A program made the position numbers and the translations under genes. Shown here one piece after another: positions 9,676 to 17,765 of a stretch of 33,032 nt of DNA. The notes under the pieces are model-generated. The model did no database searches. It saw only the letters and a program-made list of their open reading frames with translations, and was not told where the DNA came from. Origin of the DNA: a virus (Duplodnaviria > Caudoviricetes); IMG/VR virus record IMGVR_UViG_3300032219_001774, positions 1 through 33,032 of that record. One strand, given 5' to 3'. Positions within the stretch are counted from its first letter, which is position 1. The number at the start of each line of letters is the position of its first letter.

Positions 9676-10251
9676 ATGAACATCACGATTAAGATCACCT
9701 ATTGGGGCGGCACAGTCATGGACATCTCCATTCCCGTTGCCATCGAGAAGGAGGATATAACCGCCCAGAAACCTGCCTCTGTGGTCGTGGCACCAGACGA
9801 ACCACAAGCGGCATCAGAATTGGCCATTCCTGTCGCTGGCGGGCTGGTCGATGTGTTCTGTAATGAGGTCACCAAGGAAGATCTGCAACCAACTGGAAAA
9901 CAATATGCTTCAGTGCAAGACATGCTTGAAGGAACAGAGATTGTGCGTGAAGTGCCTGCTGAGGTTGCCGATACCAGCGAGCAGTTTAAATGCACCGACG
10001 GCTTCTACTCGCTCCCGCCGGCACTTTACTCCGACTTCTGTGCCGCCTTTGGTGCGCCCACAGTCGAGCGTGAGCTAACCAAGGCTCGGCTTTGGTGTGA
10101 GACCAACCAACAGAACCGCAAGACTCGCCGCGGCATGGGGCGCTTCCTCAACGCCTGGCTCTGCCGTGCTCAAGGCGAGAAGCGCACACCCGTGAAGGCA
10201 CGTTCCGGCTCGCTGCTTGATGGCTGCAACAACTCAGCACAGAGCTGGTAA
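9676..10251 (+). CDS. Putative replication initiator/replisome-organiser-like protein
   Basis: C-terminal ERELTKARLWCETN..RKT.RGM.RFLNAWL.RAQ resembles phage replication-protein C-termini. Directly upstream of and coupled (TAATG) to dnaB. Confidence 0.6.
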   Translation: MNITIKITYWGGTVMDISIPVAIEKEDITAQKPASVVVAPDEPQAASELAIPVAGGLVDVFCNEVTKEDLQPTGKQYASVQDMLEGTEIVREVPAEVADTSEQFKCTDGFYSLPPALYSDFCAAFGAPTVERELTKARLWCETNQQNRKTRRGMGRFLNAWLCRAQGEKRTPVKARSGSLLDGCNNSAQSW

Positions 10252-10901
10252 TGGAGCCACCCATCGAGAGCGAGCGAGGCATCGCAAGCATCACACTTAA
10301 CAACCCTGAACTTGTGCTCAACTCCGTCTCAGACGCCGGCTTCAACACAGCTTTTATGGCTGACCTTGTGAGCCGGTATGTGGTGGAGACTGTGCTCGAT
10401 CAGGTGTCTAGGCGGGCCGTGTGTGACGCGAGAATTGTCTTTGAATGTGTCCGGGCTAAGTTGCCTGACTTTCAGTTTCACCAACTGACTGACTTGTACA
10501 CGCTTATGCCGATTTCGTCAGCTCTGCGTGAGTTGATGGGCATCGTGAAGTCCGCTGCTAAACGCCGCGCTCTGGCAGCGATCCTGTCCGAGGGGCAGAA
10601 ACACTTGGAGTCGCCTGACATCAGTACTGCTGAGTTGGTCAACACGCTCCACCTTGGCATTGAAAAGGTCCGCGGTGAACTGCACCCACCGGCAGTGCTG
10701 GACACCAAGGCCCTCATCATGGATGCGATTACCCGCTACCAAGAGGGAGACGACCTCACGCAGCGCATTCGCACTGGCTACGACAAACTCGATAACCTAA
10801 CCCCAATCCGCTACGGTGACTTCTTGGTCATAGGTGGTCCAGAGAAATCAGGCAAGACCATGCTCGCCATCAACATAATCGCAAACATATTGAACCAATG
10901 A
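10251..10901 (+). CDS. dnaB: DnaB-like replicative helicase, N-terminal half (NTD, linker, Walker A)
   Basis: PP.IESER start, IRTGYDKLDNLT, GDFLVIGGPEKSGKT (Walker A/H1). Stops 13 residues after GKT. Confidence 0.85.
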   Translation: MEPPIESERGIASITLNNPELVLNSVSDAGFNTAFMADLVSRYVVETVLDQVSRRAVCDARIVFECVRAKLPDFQFHQLTDLYTLMPISSALRELMGIVKSAAKRRALAAILSEGQKHLESPDISTAELVNTLHLGIEKVRGELHPPAVLDTKALIMDAITRYQEGDDLTQRIRTGYDKLDNLTPIRYGDFLVIGGPEKSGKTMLAINIIANILNQ

Positions 10902-11209
10902 GACTGCTTAACTTAACGCCGCACGCCATCGTGATAACCGGCCACGAAACCATACTGCCCTCAGGCTCCATAGCCAGGGTGAACACTCAGCTATGCAACA
11001 CTGGTGATGTTAATGGCATTCCGCTGATGACCAGCAAAACTCTTGGCATTAGCAATGTGCCTCAGCCTGAGTCCGGCACCATGTACATCGTCGCCAGCAT
11101 GGTCAGAATGCACCTGCCTGACCGCAAAGATCTGTGCTCACCATCAAAGTTGATCCGCAACCAACACGGTGGCGTTGTAGCCTGTGGCGCACTGGAGGTG
11201 AACCCATGA
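10898..11209 (+). CDS. Conserved phage hypothetical protein (NLTPH family)
   Basis: LNLTPH..., PSG.IARV, YIVAS.V, R.DL..P pattern. ATGA overlap with dnaB-N. Confidence 0.7.
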   Translation: MRLLNLTPHAIVITGHETILPSGSIARVNTQLCNTGDVNGIPLMTSKTLGISNVPQPESGTMYIVASMVRMHLPDRKDLCSPSKLIRNQHGGVVACGALEVNP

Positions 11210-11673
11210 GACACATCGGACTCATCGGGCTGGCAGGCTCTGGCAAGGACACTGCGGCAGAGGCGCTGGAAAAAACGCACTGCCGCTATGCTTTTGCCGG
11301 AAGACTAAAAAGCATCGCAAGGCTGTTTGGCTGGGATGGTCAAAAGGACGAGCGAGGCAGGGCGCTGCTGCAAGACCTGGGCATGGCTGGAAGAAAGTAC
11401 GACCAAGACATTTGGGTAAATGGCATCAAAAGGCTGCTTGGCCCTGAAGTGCTCAAAAGCAAACTGGTCTTCACAGACGTGCGCTTTCAGAACGAGGCTG
11501 ACTACATTCGTAGCATTGGTGGCACAATCGTCCGCATCGTCCGCCCGGGGCAGGCCGCAGAAAATCATGAATCCGAGCTAAACCAGTCCGCTGTGGCTGC
11601 CGATATAGAGGTGGTTAACGATGGCACCATCGAAGACCTACACCAAAAAATAAGAGCAATACTAACAAAATGA
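11206..11673 (+). CDS. Deoxynucleoside monophosphate kinase
   Basis: IGLIGLAGSGKDT P-loop, R.LLQ.LG, TDVRFQNE, HESE, NDGTIEDL. Confidence 0.9.
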   Translation: MRHIGLIGLAGSGKDTAAEALEKTHCRYAFAGRLKSIARLFGWDGQKDERGRALLQDLGMAGRKYDQDIWVNGIKRLLGPEVLKSKLVFTDVRFQNEADYIRSIGGTIVRIVRPGQAAENHESELNQSAVAADIEVVNDGTIEDLHQKIRAILTK

Positions 11674-12029
11674 TAGACATACCAAGACACGAACTGCTGG
11701 ACAAGTTGGCTGATGGCTGGAGGGTGCGGATCAAAGGCGGCTATGTGAAAGGGAACATGAACAACTTAAAGACCCTGACTGAACTCAGGGGCATGGACTT
11801 TGGTTGCCTCATTGATCGCGAATGGGAAGGCGTGCCCCATCAGCCAGTGCTTCAATATGGGAACCTGAATATCCAAACAGCATTTAAGCAATTGAATAAT
11901 ACTGGGGCTGCGTTTATTTGCAGGGCTGACTGGAGAAATACTAAACTGACATTGAAAGATTGCCATGGAGCTATCTTGCATCTCCTTTTAGCCGACATCC
12001 TTGCAAGTGACTGGGAAGTCTGGGCTTAA
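11670..12029 (+). CDS. Hypothetical protein (DUF2829-like C-terminus)
   Basis: ATGA-coupled 119-aa ORF with R..W and DILASDWEV motifs. Confidence 0.55.
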   Translation: MIDIPRHELLDKLADGWRVRIKGGYVKGNMNNLKTLTELRGMDFGCLIDREWEGVPHQPVLQYGNLNIQTAFKQLNNTGAAFICRADWRNTKLTLKDCHGAILHLLLADILASDWEVWA

Positions 12030-12047
12030 CACTAAACAACTAACATT

Positions 12048-12812
12048 ATGATTCTACGAAACATACCTATGGCTGAGTACCGGCAGATGGAGGGCCTGTC
12101 GAAGCATGAGTTGGACAACTTCTCGGTTGCTCCATCATACTACCTGCACCGCAAGGGCCAGGAGTGGAAGCCATCCCGCAGCATGGAGCTTGGCACGCTG
12201 ATCCACTCGCTTGTGCTGGAAGGTCGCTGCGACTTTGCAGTGGGGCCTGAGGTGGACCGGCGCACTAAGGCTGGCAAGGAGGAGTGGCAGCTCTTCTGCG
12301 AGAACAACATTGGCAAGACCATCGTCACTCACGACGAAGCTGCTATTATTACAGGCTGCTTCAAGGCGTGTGAGCCCTTGATGGAGAACTGCGTCTACTA
12401 TGACGACGACATCGAGACATCGCTCTTCTGGGAGAGGGACGGCGTGAAGTGCAAGGGCCGTCCTGACATGATAGCAGAGATCAATGGTGAGGTGTGCTTG
12501 GTGGACTTAAAGACCACCAACGACATCCGCAACTTTGACTCCTCATTCAATAGGTTCAGGTACGATGTCCAAGCTGCTTGGTATCAGTACGGCTTCCAAC
12601 AAGCAGCCGGCCTGAGCGAGGCTCCAGGCTTCTGGTTCTTGGTTGTGGACACTGAGGCTCCGCACCTGTGTCAGTTCATGCGTGCCGGCAGCGAGATCCT
12701 GATTAACGCGAACGCTAAGATCGAAGAAGAGTTGGCTCACTTTGCGCGGTGTCAAACCGCCCAAGAGTGGCCTGGGTTGCCGGAGTTCAAACTCATCCTG
12801 CCTCGCTTCTAA
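12048..12812 (+). CDS. RecE/exonuclease VIII-like PD-(D/E)XK exonuclease
   Basis: LSKHEL, GTLIH.LVLE, RRTKAGKE, CKGRPD, VDLKTT, Y.VQAAWY motifs. Confidence 0.9.
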   Translation: MILRNIPMAEYRQMEGLSKHELDNFSVAPSYYLHRKGQEWKPSRSMELGTLIHSLVLEGRCDFAVGPEVDRRTKAGKEEWQLFCENNIGKTIVTHDEAAIITGCFKACEPLMENCVYYDDDIETSLFWERDGVKCKGRPDMIAEINGEVCLVDLKTTNDIRNFDSSFNRFRYDVQAAWYQYGFQQAAGLSEAPGFWFLVVDTEAPHLCQFMRAGSEILINANAKIEEELAHFARCQTAQEWPGLPEFKLILPRF

Positions 12813-12994
12813 TGGAAACTGCACTACTCAAGACGTTGGACTCACTGCTGGAGGCGTTTGCTCGCCACTACACAGCCGTGCAGGACCGTGACCCTGTGGC
12901 TCAGATGATCCAGCGAGATTGCTGGCGTCACTTCCAAGTCGAGGTGGCCAAGGCACGGCAGAAGATCAGGTGTGAACTGGAGGCGCTTGAATGA
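12812..12994 (+). CDS. Hypothetical protein
   Basis: 60 aa, coupled at both ends (TAATG, ATGA). Confidence 0.6.
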   Translation: METALLKTLDSLLEAFARHYTAVQDRDPVAQMIQRDCWRHFQVEVAKARQKIRCELEALE

Positions 12995-13251
12995 AAGAGT
13001 ACGTTGCACTCCGGCGCAGCATCACCAATGACGGCTACGAGCACCTGCCGCGGCCAAAGATTGTGCAGGAAGTCTTGTTGATCGGGAGCAGGGAAAACTG
13101 CCAGAGCCTGATTGATGAGTTGGCTACGCAGCCAATGCACATGTCTACAGAAGAGGTCTTCGTGGACTTCTTAGTGACAAAGTACAAGGGCCACAGGACA
13201 CACAACTCACAGGAAATCCGCAAGGACAACGGGAAGCGGTTACGCAAATGA
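12991..13251 (+). CDS. Hypothetical protein
   Basis: 86 aa, ATGA overlaps at both ends. Confidence 0.6.
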   Translation: MKEYVALRRSITNDGYEHLPRPKIVQEVLLIGSRENCQSLIDELATQPMHMSTEEVFVDFLVTKYKGHRTHNSQEIRKDNGKRLRK

Positions 13252-13829
13252 AAAAGGGTGTCTTGATCATCAGCCTCGAAATGCCAGCGAGCCAGATCAT
13301 TGACCGGCTTGTGGCTCGCCTTGGCAATGTCAGCCTCCGGGCTTTGGCAGAAGGTGTGAAATCTGAACATGAACTGATGGGAATGCAGCGTGCTCTTAAC
13401 GTGCTGCACAAGGCTCCGCTTATCATCCGTGACGACCTGTACGACATCGGGAGCATCTGCTCTGTGGCGAGGGCCATGAGCAAATCCACGATGGGCCTGG
13501 GTGTCATGTTCGTAGACTACATTCAGTTGGTGAGGTGTCAGCTTGGCAAGGATGCCAGTCGTGAGCGTGAGGTGGCAGAGGTGTCCAGGTCGTTGCGTCT
13601 GCTTGGGCTGGAGCTGGGCTGCTTGGTCATTGGGATCACGCAACTCAACGAGCAGGGGAAAGCGCGTGAGTCCCGGGCAATCCAGCAGGATGCCACCTGC
13701 ATCATGGCTATCGAAATAGATGGCGAAGAAAACCGAAAAGTGAATATACCTTTTCAGCGCAATGGTCCGTGTGGTGTGAGCACACACCTGCGGTTTAACG
13801 GCAGAACAGCATCATTCCTAAATAGTTAA
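13248..13829 (+). CDS. dnaB: DnaB-like replicative helicase, C-terminal half (H1a-H4, Arg finger)
   Basis: VLIISLEM (H1a), MFVDYIQL (Walker B/H2), REREVAEVSRSLR (H3), TQLN...RESRAIQQDA (H4), QRNGP. No Walker A in this ORF. Confidence 0.9.
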   Translation: MKKGVLIISLEMPASQIIDRLVARLGNVSLRALAEGVKSEHELMGMQRALNVLHKAPLIIRDDLYDIGSICSVARAMSKSTMGLGVMFVDYIQLVRCQLGKDASREREVAEVSRSLRLLGLELGCLVIGITQLNEQGKARESRAIQQDATCIMAIEIDGEENRKVNIPFQRNGPCGVSTHLRFNGRTASFLNS

Positions 13830-14757: not shown

Positions 14758-15280
14758 GCCCAAAAAACGTGTCTACAAGTCACCCGAAACCCGGGCGCGT
14801 CAGCTTGCTGGGCTGGCCAACGTCCGCATCGAAGATTACGTCATGGGCGTGCAGATCGAGAAAGTGAACGGCCAGGGTTACCTTGCCAGCGTGACAGAAG
14901 ACCAGAAAAAACAGGTTATTGACCTGTATTGCCAAGGTTACTCTGTGCGTGGCATTGTGGAAAAGACTGGTGTCAGCCAGACAGTCGTCCAAGCCATCAA
15001 GACTTATGGCCTCGATCACGACTCCCAGTTCAGGGAGAAGATGTACGCCGCCGGCCTCAAAGAAAAGCTCCAGCAGGTGGCTGCTGGGGCCGCGGACAGG
15101 GTGATCGAGCTAATGCCTGAGATGTCAGCCAAGGACTCTGTGCTTGCCATGGGCATTGCCACAGACAAGTTGGCTGCCCTGGAGCGTAACCGCGGGCCTG
15201 AGAGCCTACACCAACATGTACACGTCCACACTACCGCGGAGGTGGGTGATGCGTTCATGGCAGCCATGAAGCCCAAGTAA
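14741..15280 (+). CDS. HTH protein, candidate terminase small subunit
   Basis: HTH (VIDLYCQGYSVRGIVEKTGVSQTVV), then a helical oligomerisation-like region (GIATDKLAAL) and a C-terminal beta strand (HQHVHV). Confidence 0.5.
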   Translation: MKEKSKPKKRVYKSPETRARQLAGLANVRIEDYVMGVQIEKVNGQGYLASVTEDQKKQVIDLYCQGYSVRGIVEKTGVSQTVVQAIKTYGLDHDSQFREKMYAAGLKEKLQQVAAGAADRVIELMPEMSAKDSVLAMGIATDKLAALERNRGPESLHQHVHVHTTAEVGDAFMAAMKPK

Positions 15281-16509
15281 TGTGGATACTACCGAAACAA
15301 CTCATATCAGCCTTTGTTCAGGGTACGGAGGCATTGACCTCGGACTCCGGCGAGTGCTCCCAAACCTGCGCACGGTCGCTTATGCGGAGATCGAAGCCTT
15401 CGCCTGCGAAAACTTACTTGCGCGAATGGAAGGCGGGCAACTTGATGCGGCTCCGATCTGGAGCGATCTCAAGTCCTTCCCTTGGGAAAGCTTTCGAGGT
15501 ATGGTGGACATCCTCACTGGAGGCTACCCCTGCCAGCCGTTTAGCGCAGCCGGCAAGCGAGCTGGAGCAGACGACCCAAGGCACCTCTGGCCATTTATCT
15601 CAGCCGGAATTGCTGCAATGCGACCAAGTCTCTGTTTCTTTGAAAACGTCGAGGGACATATCTCGCTGGGGTTGCCCGACGTCATCGAAGACTTGGCAGG
15701 AATGGGTTACAGAACAACGTGGGGCATATTCAGCGCGGCTGAAGTTGGCGCGCCTCACCAGCGCAAGCGAGTGTTTGTCATGGCCGTCGCCAGTGGCTTC
15801 GGAAGTGAGACAAGGTTTTCAGGACCGCTCACGAGGCATGAAGGGATCACAGGAATCACTGACGACTGTGGTGCTCAAAAATGGCCTAGCCGCCCCGGCC
15901 AACCACAGCACGCTTGGGAGCCGCCCAGAGTTGTTGTCGGACGCATGGCCCACTCCAACAGCCCTGAGCCGAGTCAGGAACGAGGAGACGATGGAGAAAT
16001 GTCTCAAGTTTCGCCAAAGCAACGGACAGACCACAGTGCCTCTGTATCTGGAGGAGAGAGTCAACATCGAGGAGAAGGGCCGCCAAGAGTGGTGGGGCAC
16101 TCCAGCGGCAAACGATGCGAACAAGACTCCACACTGCGAGATCAACAGCAAACAGGCGGGGCTAGTCAGGTCAGTCGGGAGGGAGGAGGCAAAGGCATGG
16201 GCAACACCCAGAGCAGAGATGGACAGCGGAGCGCACAGGGGGAAGCCGGACACGCTGCACAGCCAGATCAAGGCATGGGCGACCCCTCAGACACGGGACA
16301 ACCGCAGCGGGGGAGCGGAACGATGGGACAACCCAAACAAAAGCCGGAATTTGAACGATCAGATAGCAACAGAGACAATACAGAACGCGAAATTGAACCC
16401 GCGCTGGGTAGAAGCATTACAAGGACTTCCGATAGGCTGGACTATGCCAAACTGTGCATCACCTGTGACAATCGCACAGACGAGTTGCGCCTCCTCGGCA
16501 ACGGAGTAG
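15280..16509 (+). CDS. Overlapping alternate-frame methyltransferase partner chain (beta-type: TRD-like modules plus motif IX)
   Basis: 409 codons open over the MTase gene. Five W-x-[TS]-P modules and a motif IX-like LNPRWVEALQGLPIGWT. ATG coupled to the upstream stop. Confidence 0.75.
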   Translation: MWILPKQLISAFVQGTEALTSDSGECSQTCARSLMRRSKPSPAKTYLREWKAGNLMRLRSGAISSPSLGKAFEVWWTSSLEATPASRLAQPASELEQTTQGTSGHLSQPELLQCDQVSVSLKTSRDISRWGCPTSSKTWQEWVTEQRGAYSARLKLARLTSASECLSWPSPVASEVRQGFQDRSRGMKGSQESLTTVVLKNGLAAPANHSTLGSRPELLSDAWPTPTALSRVRNEETMEKCLKFRQSNGQTTVPLYLEERVNIEEKGRQEWWGTPAANDANKTPHCEINSKQAGLVRSVGREEAKAWATPRAEMDSGAHRGKPDTLHSQIKAWATPQTRDNRSGGAERWDNPNKSRNLNDQIATETIQNAKLNPRWVEALQGLPIGWTMPNCASPVTIAQTSCASSATE

Positions 16510-16607
16510 TGCCGGCAACGGCAGAGTTAGCATTCAAAACATTATTAAATGAACTACACAAAGATCGGCGCACTGCCAACGCACCGCTACATCTGGGTGG
16601 ACAGTGA
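15282..16607 (+). CDS. DNA (cytosine-5) methyltransferase, catalytic (alpha-type) chain
   Basis: Motif I SLCSGYGG, IV GGYPCQPFS.AG, VI FFENVEG, VIII HQRKRVF, X LLGNGVVP. GTG start. No recognisable motif IX in this frame. Confidence 0.9.
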   Translation: MDTTETTHISLCSGYGGIDLGLRRVLPNLRTVAYAEIEAFACENLLARMEGGQLDAAPIWSDLKSFPWESFRGMVDILTGGYPCQPFSAAGKRAGADDPRHLWPFISAGIAAMRPSLCFFENVEGHISLGLPDVIEDLAGMGYRTTWGIFSAAEVGAPHQRKRVFVMAVASGFGSETRFSGPLTRHEGITGITDDCGAQKWPSRPGQPQHAWEPPRVVVGRMAHSNSPEPSQERGDDGEMSQVSPKQRTDHSASVSGGESQHRGEGPPRVVGHSSGKRCEQDSTLRDQQQTGGASQVSREGGGKGMGNTQSRDGQRSAQGEAGHAAQPDQGMGDPSDTGQPQRGSGTMGQPKQKPEFERSDSNRDNTEREIEPALGRSITRTSDRLDYAKLCITCDNRTDELRLLGNGVVPATAELAFKTLLNELHKDRRTANAPLHLGGQ

Positions 16608-17091
16608 GTACACTCACGCTGAGCCGTGTGGCCTAGTGGAAGCCATGTGGGTTGGTCTGACGGCTATCCCGGGGCGAGCTTGGGGCATCAATGTGATCCT
16701 GCGAGACGGGGGCGCTCTGTACCGCAACATCCCGCCTCATGCGGTGGCGTTTAGTGAAGACGCTGAGCCTTGGTCCATCAAGGACGCTCAGTTGTGGGAC
16801 TGCTACAGCTACGGCTTCACCGTGCTGCAAAACCCTATCCTGCGCGGGCTGGAGGTCATTGTAGTGTGGAAGGATAATGTACAGTACGGGGAGTACATGT
16901 TCTCGGTGACCCACCTGCATGACGGCTGGTCTGACGCACCGGATCAGGACAAGGAGTTCATATTTGTGCAGCTCTACAATGGCCGGCTGACGATTCAGCC
17001 TACCAACAGGGTGAGGTTCATTGACCACAGCTTTACAAAAAATGAGTTGCCTAAACTTAAACTGCAAACGGCTATATATTCCTGCGAATGA
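16549..17091 (+). CDS. Hypothetical phage protein
   Basis: 180 aa with typical codon usage (GGALYRNIP.HA, QLWDC, QP.NR). ATGA-coupled to the next gene. Confidence 0.7.
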   Translation: MNYTKIGALPTHRYIWVDSEYTHAEPCGLVEAMWVGLTAIPGRAWGINVILRDGGALYRNIPPHAVAFSEDAEPWSIKDAQLWDCYSYGFTVLQNPILRGLEVIVVWKDNVQYGEYMFSVTHLHDGWSDAPDQDKEFIFVQLYNGRLTIQPTNRVRFIDHSFTKNELPKLKLQTAIYSCE

Positions 17092-17765
17092 TCGTCATGC
17101 CAGCAAACGCGACAGGCTGGTTCTGGCACTGTCTTGCACGGGAAACTGGGCGCATTGGGCATCTGTTTTCCCCTGGAGCTCAGCGTGGCCCATGGCCTTG
17201 GTTTCCCTACGCACTGGACAACGGTGCCTTTGCTGCTTGGGATCAGGACGACAACGTGTGGCGCGAAGACCTCTGGGATGTCGAAGCATGGCGTAAGATG
17301 ATTCGGTGGGCAGACGCAAACACACAAAAGCCACAGTGGGCTATCGTTCCTGATTGGATTGGCAGCGGAGAGCGTACCATCGAGCGGTGGTATCAATTCA
17401 AAGATGAAATTCCATTTCAAAAAGCTCTAGCTGTTCAGAATGGCATGGGCGTTGCTCAAGCCAGAGAACTGGAGCCCGATGTCATTTGTGTGGGTGGCAC
17501 CACCGAATGGAAGTGGGCTACCGTTGAAATGTGGGCGAAGGAATTTCCGCGGGTGCATGTGCTGCGCGTCAATTCACCCACAAAACTGGACTGGTTGGAG
17601 CAGCTCGGAGTGGAGTCCTGTGATGGCACAGGGTGGAATCGCGGGGACAAGACGCAAACTTACGGACTAGAAACCTGGGCACGATCCAAGGCACAGCCTA
17701 CGACATCATTGCTAACCACCCACGTTTGCAAGCAGCCGGACAAACAACAGTTGACTTTTCTATGA
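17088..17765 (+). CDS. TGT/DpdA-like (tRNA-guanine transglycosylase fold) protein
   Basis: YALDNGAF, IVPDWIG, VHVL, SCDGTGW match the D-S/N-G-A-F ... D ... H ... D-S/G-S/T-x-W layout of TGT/DpdA-like TIM barrels. Confidence 0.6.
   Translation: MIVMPANATGWFWHCLARETGRIGHLFSPGAQRGPWPWFPYALDNGAFAAWDQDDNVWREDLWDVEAWRKMIRWADANTQKPQWAIVPDWIGSGERTIERWYQFKDEIPFQKALAVQNGMGVAQARELEPDVICVGGTTEWKWATVEMWAKEFPRVHVLRVNSPTKLDWLEQLGVESCDGTGWNRGDKTQTYGLETWARSKAQPTTSLLTTHVCKQPDKQQLTFL

Follow-up and report, generated by a model that had tools for sequence, protein, structure and literature searches.

A DnaB-type helicase gene divided between its P-loop and its catalytic glutamate across an uncultured virus family

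We analysed the IMG/VR virus record IMGVR_UViG_3300032219_001774 (Duplodnaviria; Caudoviricetes) over its whole length of 33,032 bases, hereafter the window (completeness estimate 83%), in which a DnaB-type helicase gene lies in two separate open reading frames (ORFs; Table 1). The record also codes for terminase, an SU10-type portal, capsid and a DNA-transfer protein and, judged by these genes, it is a podovirus-like phage. A sequence-only reading of the window, made without database searches, had described the two ORFs as giving, when concatenated, a contiguous DnaB of ~409 amino acids (aa), and had proposed that both be aligned to DnaB hidden Markov models (HMMs). Both ORFs are present with a summed length of 216+193 = 409 aa, and the profiles are tiled end to end. 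TIGR00665 (435 positions) is covered without overlap by the N half at 6-221 (E-value 5e-9) and the C half at 224-432 (7e-29), Pfam DnaB_C (PF03796, 255 positions) at 2-44 and 49-254 (6e-30 for the C half), and PHROG19 at 192-378 (1e-13) and 381-578. The profile alignment of the N half with its one-piece relatives extends over 215 columns with a probability of 100, and the alignment of the C half to Escherichia coli DnaB starts at residue 254. These two ORFs are the only DnaB_C matches in the 33-kb record.

In the window, the N half stops 15 codons past the Walker A lysine, and the C half begins 10 codons before the catalytic glutamate. Between them are 2346 nucleotides (nt) with six plus-strand ORFs. 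Of the seven junctions counted between the end of the N half and the beginning of the C half, six are stop/start overlaps and the seventh is an 18-nt spacer (12030-12047), in agreement with the earlier description of nearly all genes as translationally coupled and of both halves as having coupled starts.

Table 1. Genes of the split helicase locus (positions in the window)
Feature	Coordinates	Strand	Description
ORF upstream of the N half	9676..10251	+	stop/start overlap with the N half (10249-10253); syntenic in relatives; no family match
DnaB N half	10251..10901	+	216 aa; N-terminal domain, linker helix, first RecA-fold strand, P-loop (Walker A) and its helix
Crn4-type ring nuclease homologue	10898..11209	+	first gene after the N half; in 77/77 gaps
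Deoxynucleoside monophosphate (dNMP) kinase	11206..11673	+	PF21448 (E 9e-14), phrog_139 (E 7e-38); variable, missing from many related gaps
119-aa ORF	11670..12029	+	no Pfam, PHROG or NCBIfam match; variable cargo
Exonuclease VIII (RecE-like, PD-(D/E)XK, DUF3799)	12048..12812	+	PF12684 (E 7e-23), phrog_412 (E 1e-50); constant cargo
60-aa ORF	12812..12994	+	no family match; in few relatives; variable cargo
86-aa conserved protein	12991..13251	+	own HMM finds it in 77/77 gaps; constant cargo; coupled to the C-half start
DnaB C half	13248..13829	+	193 aa; catalytic Glu (SLEM), Walker B, sensor Gln, DNA-binding loops, Arg finger

We looked for the same break in related contigs, as the reading had suggested. 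Scans of viral contigs and of 25/64 parts of a metagenome collection yielded 337 locus records, the window among them; many are repeat fetches of the same contigs. Records with both halves near-complete and a C half at least 50% identical to that of the window (237/337) form the two-half set; in the remaining records a half is missing at a contig end, or the helicases are distant. Counted as distinct DNA pairs, the 237 records come to 77, taken from many contigs that were assembled separately, and none of the 237 has both halves in a single ORF. A mis-assembly, or close relatives all having intact dnaB, would have spoken against the earlier reading, and the related loci point the other way on both counts. 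Gap length ranges from 1311 to 3820 nt, and identity falls as low as ~40% for N halves and ~63% for C halves. The position of the break is kept throughout: the C-half ATG is exactly 10 codons before the catalytic glutamate in 73/77 pairs (at -11 to -22 in the others), and the N-half stop is 13-18 codons past the Walker A lysine in 69/77, the longer tails of the other eight (8/77) being overlaps with the next gene. No internal stops were observed in either half. The split is a trait of a large uncultured virus family, and not an assembly error or decay.

In a protein search with the N-half alignment, all of the 120 listed out of 232 matches are 216-257 aa long, and no N-half relatives of 458-2000 aa were found, a range that excludes forms of ~430 aa. 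When viral contigs were scanned with a pattern for a joined junction, the four matches were all distant one-piece outgroups of ~40% identity. Among cultured phages nothing matched the N half, and the C-half matches were generic DnaB of <60% identity. Among species genomes, 1/185,579 matched (L337), through a 13.5-kb contig from a metagenome-assembled genome (MAG) titled Pedosphaera sp.; the complete split locus and the terminase are both on this contig, which may be a binned phage and is a weak hint of a Verrucomicrobiota host. In the best DNA run containing the stretch, one contig spans all of it with no differences; this run is perhaps the source of the window and was not counted as independent. 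No RNA runs containing the stretch were listed. As a separate observation, in the earliest-branching split lineage (L217, L219 and L216) the C half is slightly extended at its N terminus, and this extension overlaps the gene before it.

The catalytic residues are conserved across both chains. Walker A K-S-G-K-T, the SLEM motif with the catalytic glutamate, the Walker B aspartate, T-Q-L-N with the sensor glutamine, R-E-S-R and the finger arginine are each present in 77/77 pairs. The claim that the C half has all the remaining motifs thus stood except for the lysine of the K-x-R finger motif. At this position, two residues before the arginine finger, we observed isoleucine in 44, phenylalanine in 16, tyrosine in 16 and tryptophan in one of the 77 pairs, and lysine in none (0/77). 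In DnaB the lysine finger acts in trans, from the neighbouring subunit (K444 in Helicobacter pylori; PMC8421360), and the DnaB Walker A pattern is given in the same source as A-R-P-x-x-G-K-T. The split family instead has a lysine three residues before the Walker A lysine (K-3) in 77/77 pairs. The finger lysine is also lost in many one-piece relatives, which likewise have the K-3 lysine. Among one-piece DnaB-like proteins, 43 distinct motif pairs comprise 16 with K-3 lysine and no finger lysine, 24 with the reverse and three exceptions, which look by eye like pattern mis-hits; these counts are inflated by relatedness, and the swap still recurs in more than one lineage. This comparison took in window positions 10837-10860 and 13753-13764 and the one-piece proteins and loci P0001-P0017, L225-L270 and L338-L385. 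We infer that the K-3 lysine would replace, in cis, the lysine finger that acts in trans. The loop before the fourth helicase motif (H4) is ~11 residues shorter than in E. coli DnaB, and likewise in one-piece relatives. Since both the short loop and the finger change occur in one-piece relatives, they are traits of the family and do not result from the split; the change of the finger lysine is older than the split.

Both halves are under strong purifying selection, in contrast to the neutral evolution that the earlier reading had set against itself. Using the Nei-Gojobori method on pairs with synonymous divergence (dS) of 0.05-1, the median ratio of nonsynonymous to synonymous divergence (dN/dS) was 0.053 for the N half (471 pairs) and 0.042 for the C half (767 pairs), with no pair at or above 0.5; exonuclease VIII has a similar median of 0.051. 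Between the window and its nearest relative the values were 0.049 (N) and 0.080 (C). The N half is most conserved over its final 42 residues, where the P-loop lies, with an amino-acid difference of 0.036 in mid-distance pairs compared to 0.09-0.18 elsewhere in the N half. Fourfold-degenerate sites in this stretch diverge nearly as much as in the rest of the N half, and therefore the constraint is on the protein; a splice signal or recent conversion of the tract would not account for it. The halves also diverge together. Over 14 loci with eight shared genes, the Spearman correlation of N-half and C-half distances (0.85) is the top of 28 gene pairs, and it ranks first in 344/500 subsamples. Distance correlations of either half with the genes lying between are lower (0.43-0.70).

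We also searched for longer relatives, and obtained 17 full-length proteins, 16 of which are outgroups 39-50% identical. The remaining one, P0001 (431 aa), shares 72% identity over the C half. The split forms and P0001 make one clade in the trees (support 100/100), with P0001 as sister to the split locus L018 (100/99); separate trees of the N and C regions agree, and a split-only clade without P0001 was rejected by the approximately unbiased (AU) test (p-AU 0.034). Another one-piece protein, P0140, which comes from a 40-kb contig and likewise falls inside the split clade, is in the 90% cluster of P0001 together with P0138, a free C half (196 aa, 95% identical, with a split-type start); these proteins were compared as protein records. 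The one-piece allele has a 7-residue linker that is present in neither half. The simplest reading is one old split followed by a later re-join into the P0001-type allele. The linker of P0001 is of the same length as in the outgroups P0014 and P0015, and an allele that was never split, or one restored by recombination, is thereby possible. In either case split and joined forms coexist among close kin, which argues for the same job.

The aforementioned data led us to propose that the halves of this DnaB-type helicase probably bind each other non-covalently and rebuild each subunit, giving a 6+6 helicase ring that would hydrolyse ATP and unwind DNA. The N chain would give the N-terminal collar, the linker helix and the P-loop strand with its helix, and the C chain would give the catalytic glutamate, Walker B, the DNA loops and the arginine finger. 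In the RecA-fold topology the P-loop strand belongs to the same beta-sheet as the strands of the C half. On this topology the nucleotide site would need both chains, and folding itself would hold the pair, with no need for added tails. The chain of coupled stop and start codons would provide roughly matched amounts of the two chains. An AlphaFold model of P0001 (mean predicted local distance difference test score, pLDDT, 81; template modelling score, TM, 0.79 to 4esv_H, a full DnaB) places the break in the loop between the P-loop helix (220-233) and the strand bearing the catalytic glutamate (241-244). The C half modelled alone has pLDDT <50 over most of residues 133-193, compared to 77-89 in the one-piece relative, which would fit a C half that depends on the N chain; the underlying alignments differ, and we did not count this as evidence.

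This proposal is close to the naturally fragmented helicase, with an active site shared between chains, of the sequence-only reading. The fragmentation is upheld by the conservation in 77 pairs, purifying selection, the invariant residues, co-divergence and the nested one-piece allele, and the assembly is predicted from sequence. The two further suggestions, separate control of the N-ring and the motor and interference with host DnaB, found no support. As to the first, the P-loop strand and helix are on the N chain, so that N-ring and motor are not neatly divided between the chains, the locus is one coupled chain of ORFs, and promoter and terminator scans of it gave nothing above chance. Several points weigh against reassembly into an active ring. 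A further helicase gene may sit outside the incomplete record. The dN/dS pairs are non-independent, many coming from one dense subclade, and the AU test is modest, with a simple LG+G4 model and three long-branch outgroups left out. The lysine finger is absent from every pair. The split NrdA of phage Aeh1 requires acquired, oppositely charged tails for its activity, whereas the phage helicase halves are without conserved tails.

Covalent joining of the halves after all, by splicing of a gene-packed group I intron, protein trans-splicing or ribosomal bypass, would be permitted by the order and strand of the genes, and fractured gp41 helicases with split inteins are known (PMC2677866). We consider it very unlikely here. 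As the earlier reading had stated for inteins, homing endonucleases and intron-like RNA, Hint/intein and homing-endonuclease families had no match on the eight ORFs of the region in Pfam, PHROG and NCBIfam. HNH, GIY-YIG, LAGLIDADG and Vsr were likewise without a match, the sole nuclease in these searches being of the exonuclease VIII type. The halves carry no N- or C-intein, neither ORF has room for one, and their tails are far too short for inteins. Rfam gave no match in the window, and at E-values up to 1 in seven loci (five related and the window's two flanking) it gave none in the gaps and one weak match outside a gap, although a strongly diverged ribozyme core buried in coding sequence might escape it; the only spacer in the window gap is that of 18 nt. 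Beyond the last conserved codons, the junction sequence of 21 divergent representatives shows no conservation, and the frame from the N-half stop to the next gene varies. The C-half ATG keeps its position across loci whose synonymous divergence is saturated. To join the halves by bypass, ribosomes would have to cross 1.3-3.8 kb whose content varies. Beside the junctions, synonymous divergence shows none of the decrease that homing would leave. Recombination that restores an intact dnaB during infection, with the block as an excisable DNA element, is scarcely credible, even given a one-piece allele inside the clade: there are no direct or inverted (att-like) repeats at the two junctions, none of the 29 ORFs scanned matched a recombinase family, the block differs in size and content between loci, the 11 joints listed in four DNA runs include none that connects the halves (0/11; contigs drop rare variants), and the 7-residue linker of the one-piece allele is encoded in neither half. 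An 18-nt repeat spaced 2347 nt was considered and rejected, having 78% identity and lying away from the junctions.

It is also conceivable that the halves are kept for another job, as an ATPase-competent loader or recruiter that engages host DnaB, or as a poison of the host ring. The missing lysine finger, the shortened loop before H4 and the departure of Walker A from the DnaB pattern would fit such a role. The first two of these features are shared by one-piece relatives, the remaining catalytic residues and the N-terminal domain are kept, and the record has no second DnaB match, and we therefore regard this account as unlikely. From a single window alone, an assembly error or a dead gene would have been conceivable; both are refuted by the break common to 77 distinct DNA pairs, dN/dS of ~0.05 and uninterrupted reading frames. 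Non-covalent reassembly of the two chains is thus the account that we prefer.

The genes in the gap are not a fixed set, nor are they all passengers. The earlier reading had counted six unrelated, intact genes between the halves; the six ORFs are there, and not all of them are unrelated passengers, three being kept in 77/77 gaps. The product of the first gene, in a phmmer search against solved structures, matched Crn4a (E-value 4e-8) and Crn4b (2e-4), and at the positions of T13, H15 and R112 of Crn4a its homologues have threonine in 74/77, histidine in 71/77 and arginine in 77/77. Threonine, histidine and arginine are the catalytic residues of Crn4, and phage copies have been proposed as anti-CRISPRs (PMC12830947). 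The Crn4 homologue in the gap is likely an anti-defence gene, acting against CRISPR or the cyclic oligonucleotide-based antiphage signalling system (anti-CBASS). Exonuclease VIII was recovered from 77/77 loci, and lies between the halves in each two-half locus listed. The 86-aa protein had no Pfam, PHROG or NCBIfam match, and its atlas matches were all <0.9; it has a conserved L-P-R-P-K and a C-terminal R-x-x-N-G-x-R motif, and it could be an accessory of the split helicase. The C-terminal motif, which is Walker A-like in some relatives, was considered as a dnaB remnant and rejected, as its distance to the catalytic glutamate misfits and varies. Across related gaps, the dNMP kinase, a methyltransferase and small ORFs are present in some and absent from others, and contigs of relatives skip the 119-aa ORF cleanly (joints 11651/12047).

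In distant relatives with a one-piece dnaB, a DUF3799 exonuclease (L228) or a dNMP kinase (3/4 loci) is located upstream of dnaB, and the block may therefore consist of replication genes of the phage itself that were rearranged into dnaB. No homologue of the Crn4-type or the 86-aa protein was found in 86 intact-candidate loci, nor in the four one-piece loci from the joined-junction scan. We propose that one old rearrangement put a three-gene block (the Crn4-type nuclease, exonuclease VIII and the unknown gene) into a surface loop of dnaB; the split would have been tolerated and then kept, as undoing it requires an exact join and the block genes would themselves be under selection. Taken further, and much more tentatively, the helicase could be a 12-chain heteromeric motor in which P-loop and catalytic base come from different genes, the stimulatory lysine has moved from the adjacent subunit into the P-loop, an anti-defence ring nuclease is sheltered in the internal loop, the block can be lost only by an exact re-join, and split and joined alleles interconvert; we would not be surprised if this combination proved wrong. 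Upstream of the N half, an intact relative has an HTH_36 protein at the position equivalent to the ORF 9676..10251, which by position is possibly a replication initiator.

Other features of the window lie away from the helicase locus. At 15280-16509 and 15282-16607, a 409-codon open alternative frame overlies a C5 DNA methyltransferase gene, and the methyltransferase has a long, poorly conserved middle. Adjoining genes at 16549-17765, one ferredoxin-annotated (phrog_3704) and the other weakly tRNA-guanine-transglycosylase-like (phrog_887), could act together in DNA modification.

Each subunit of a DnaB-type helicase is regarded as a single chain, and the known interruptions are repaired by inteins or introns. 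A splice-free cut between P-loop and catalytic base, kept under long selection, shows where the RecA fold can open. It is also a gene fission fixed without a selfish endonuclease, and it enlarges the set of phage Crn4-type genes by dozens, all in a constant setting. The natural split pair and its joined relative (95% over the C half) are a testbed for ring opening, loader-free loading and subunit-specific mutagenesis of a hexameric motor. Loci of this kind are likely mis-annotated as broken helicases.

The split helicase can be compared with several known systems. In domain order, fold and all catalytic motifs but one it is like DnaB (TIGR00665, PF03796; PDB 4esv, 7t22), from which it differs in having two genes, a replaced lysine finger together with the K-3 lysine, a shorter loop before H4, and scores under the curated equivalog cut-offs. 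Our literature search, which covered few subscription papers, found no description of a splice-free split DnaB; the 'two-subunit DnaB' of PMC12593628 is a helicase plus a primase, and the term 'split helicase' is applied in PMC4824171, according to its listing, to a plasmid gene. The Crn4 ring nucleases (PDB 9sma, 9qs9, 9r7b) are homologous to the product of the first gap gene, with the three catalytic positions kept. In the Crn4 survey, 28,137 phage genomes gave 11 homologues, and the word helicase does not occur in the main text (PMC12830947). The homologues described here are far more numerous and are inside dnaB in 77/77 loci; they would be predicted to degrade cyclic oligoadenylates.

Phage enzymes in pieces have been described, namely NrdA-a/NrdA-b of Aeh1 split by mobE (PMC3045599), the T4 topoisomerase gp39/gp60 split by mobA, and gp43A/43B of phages 25 and 44RR (PMC2988022), and reassembly into an active form was shown for Aeh1 NrdA (PMC3045599) and gp43 (PMC2988022). 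Like these T4-like genes-in-pieces, the helicase would be an essential phage enzyme made from two separately translated genes, with catalytic residues on both and no splicing. Unlike them, it is a RecA-fold ring motor, its insert is 1.3-3.8 kb of ordinary phage genes with no homing-endonuclease match, it is without conserved charged tails, and its reassembly is predicted, compared to that shown for NrdA and gp43. In addition, the T4-like cases are found in one or two phages, whereas here the split is fixed across a wide clade with a one-piece allele nested in it. A further comparison is with the fractured gp41 helicase genes, also known from environmental DNA, in which a DnaB-superfamily phage helicase is in two ORFs with a free-standing endonuclease between them and split inteins ligate the halves (Dassa et al. 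2009, PMC2677866); with no intein here, the product would stay as two chains. Jumbo phages carry split DNA polymerase III alpha and RNA polymerase subunits, with breaks described between subdomains (PMC7824862). These likewise are replication or transcription enzymes encoded by distant separate genes without splicing; in the helicase, on the other hand, the break is inside one nucleotide-binding fold.

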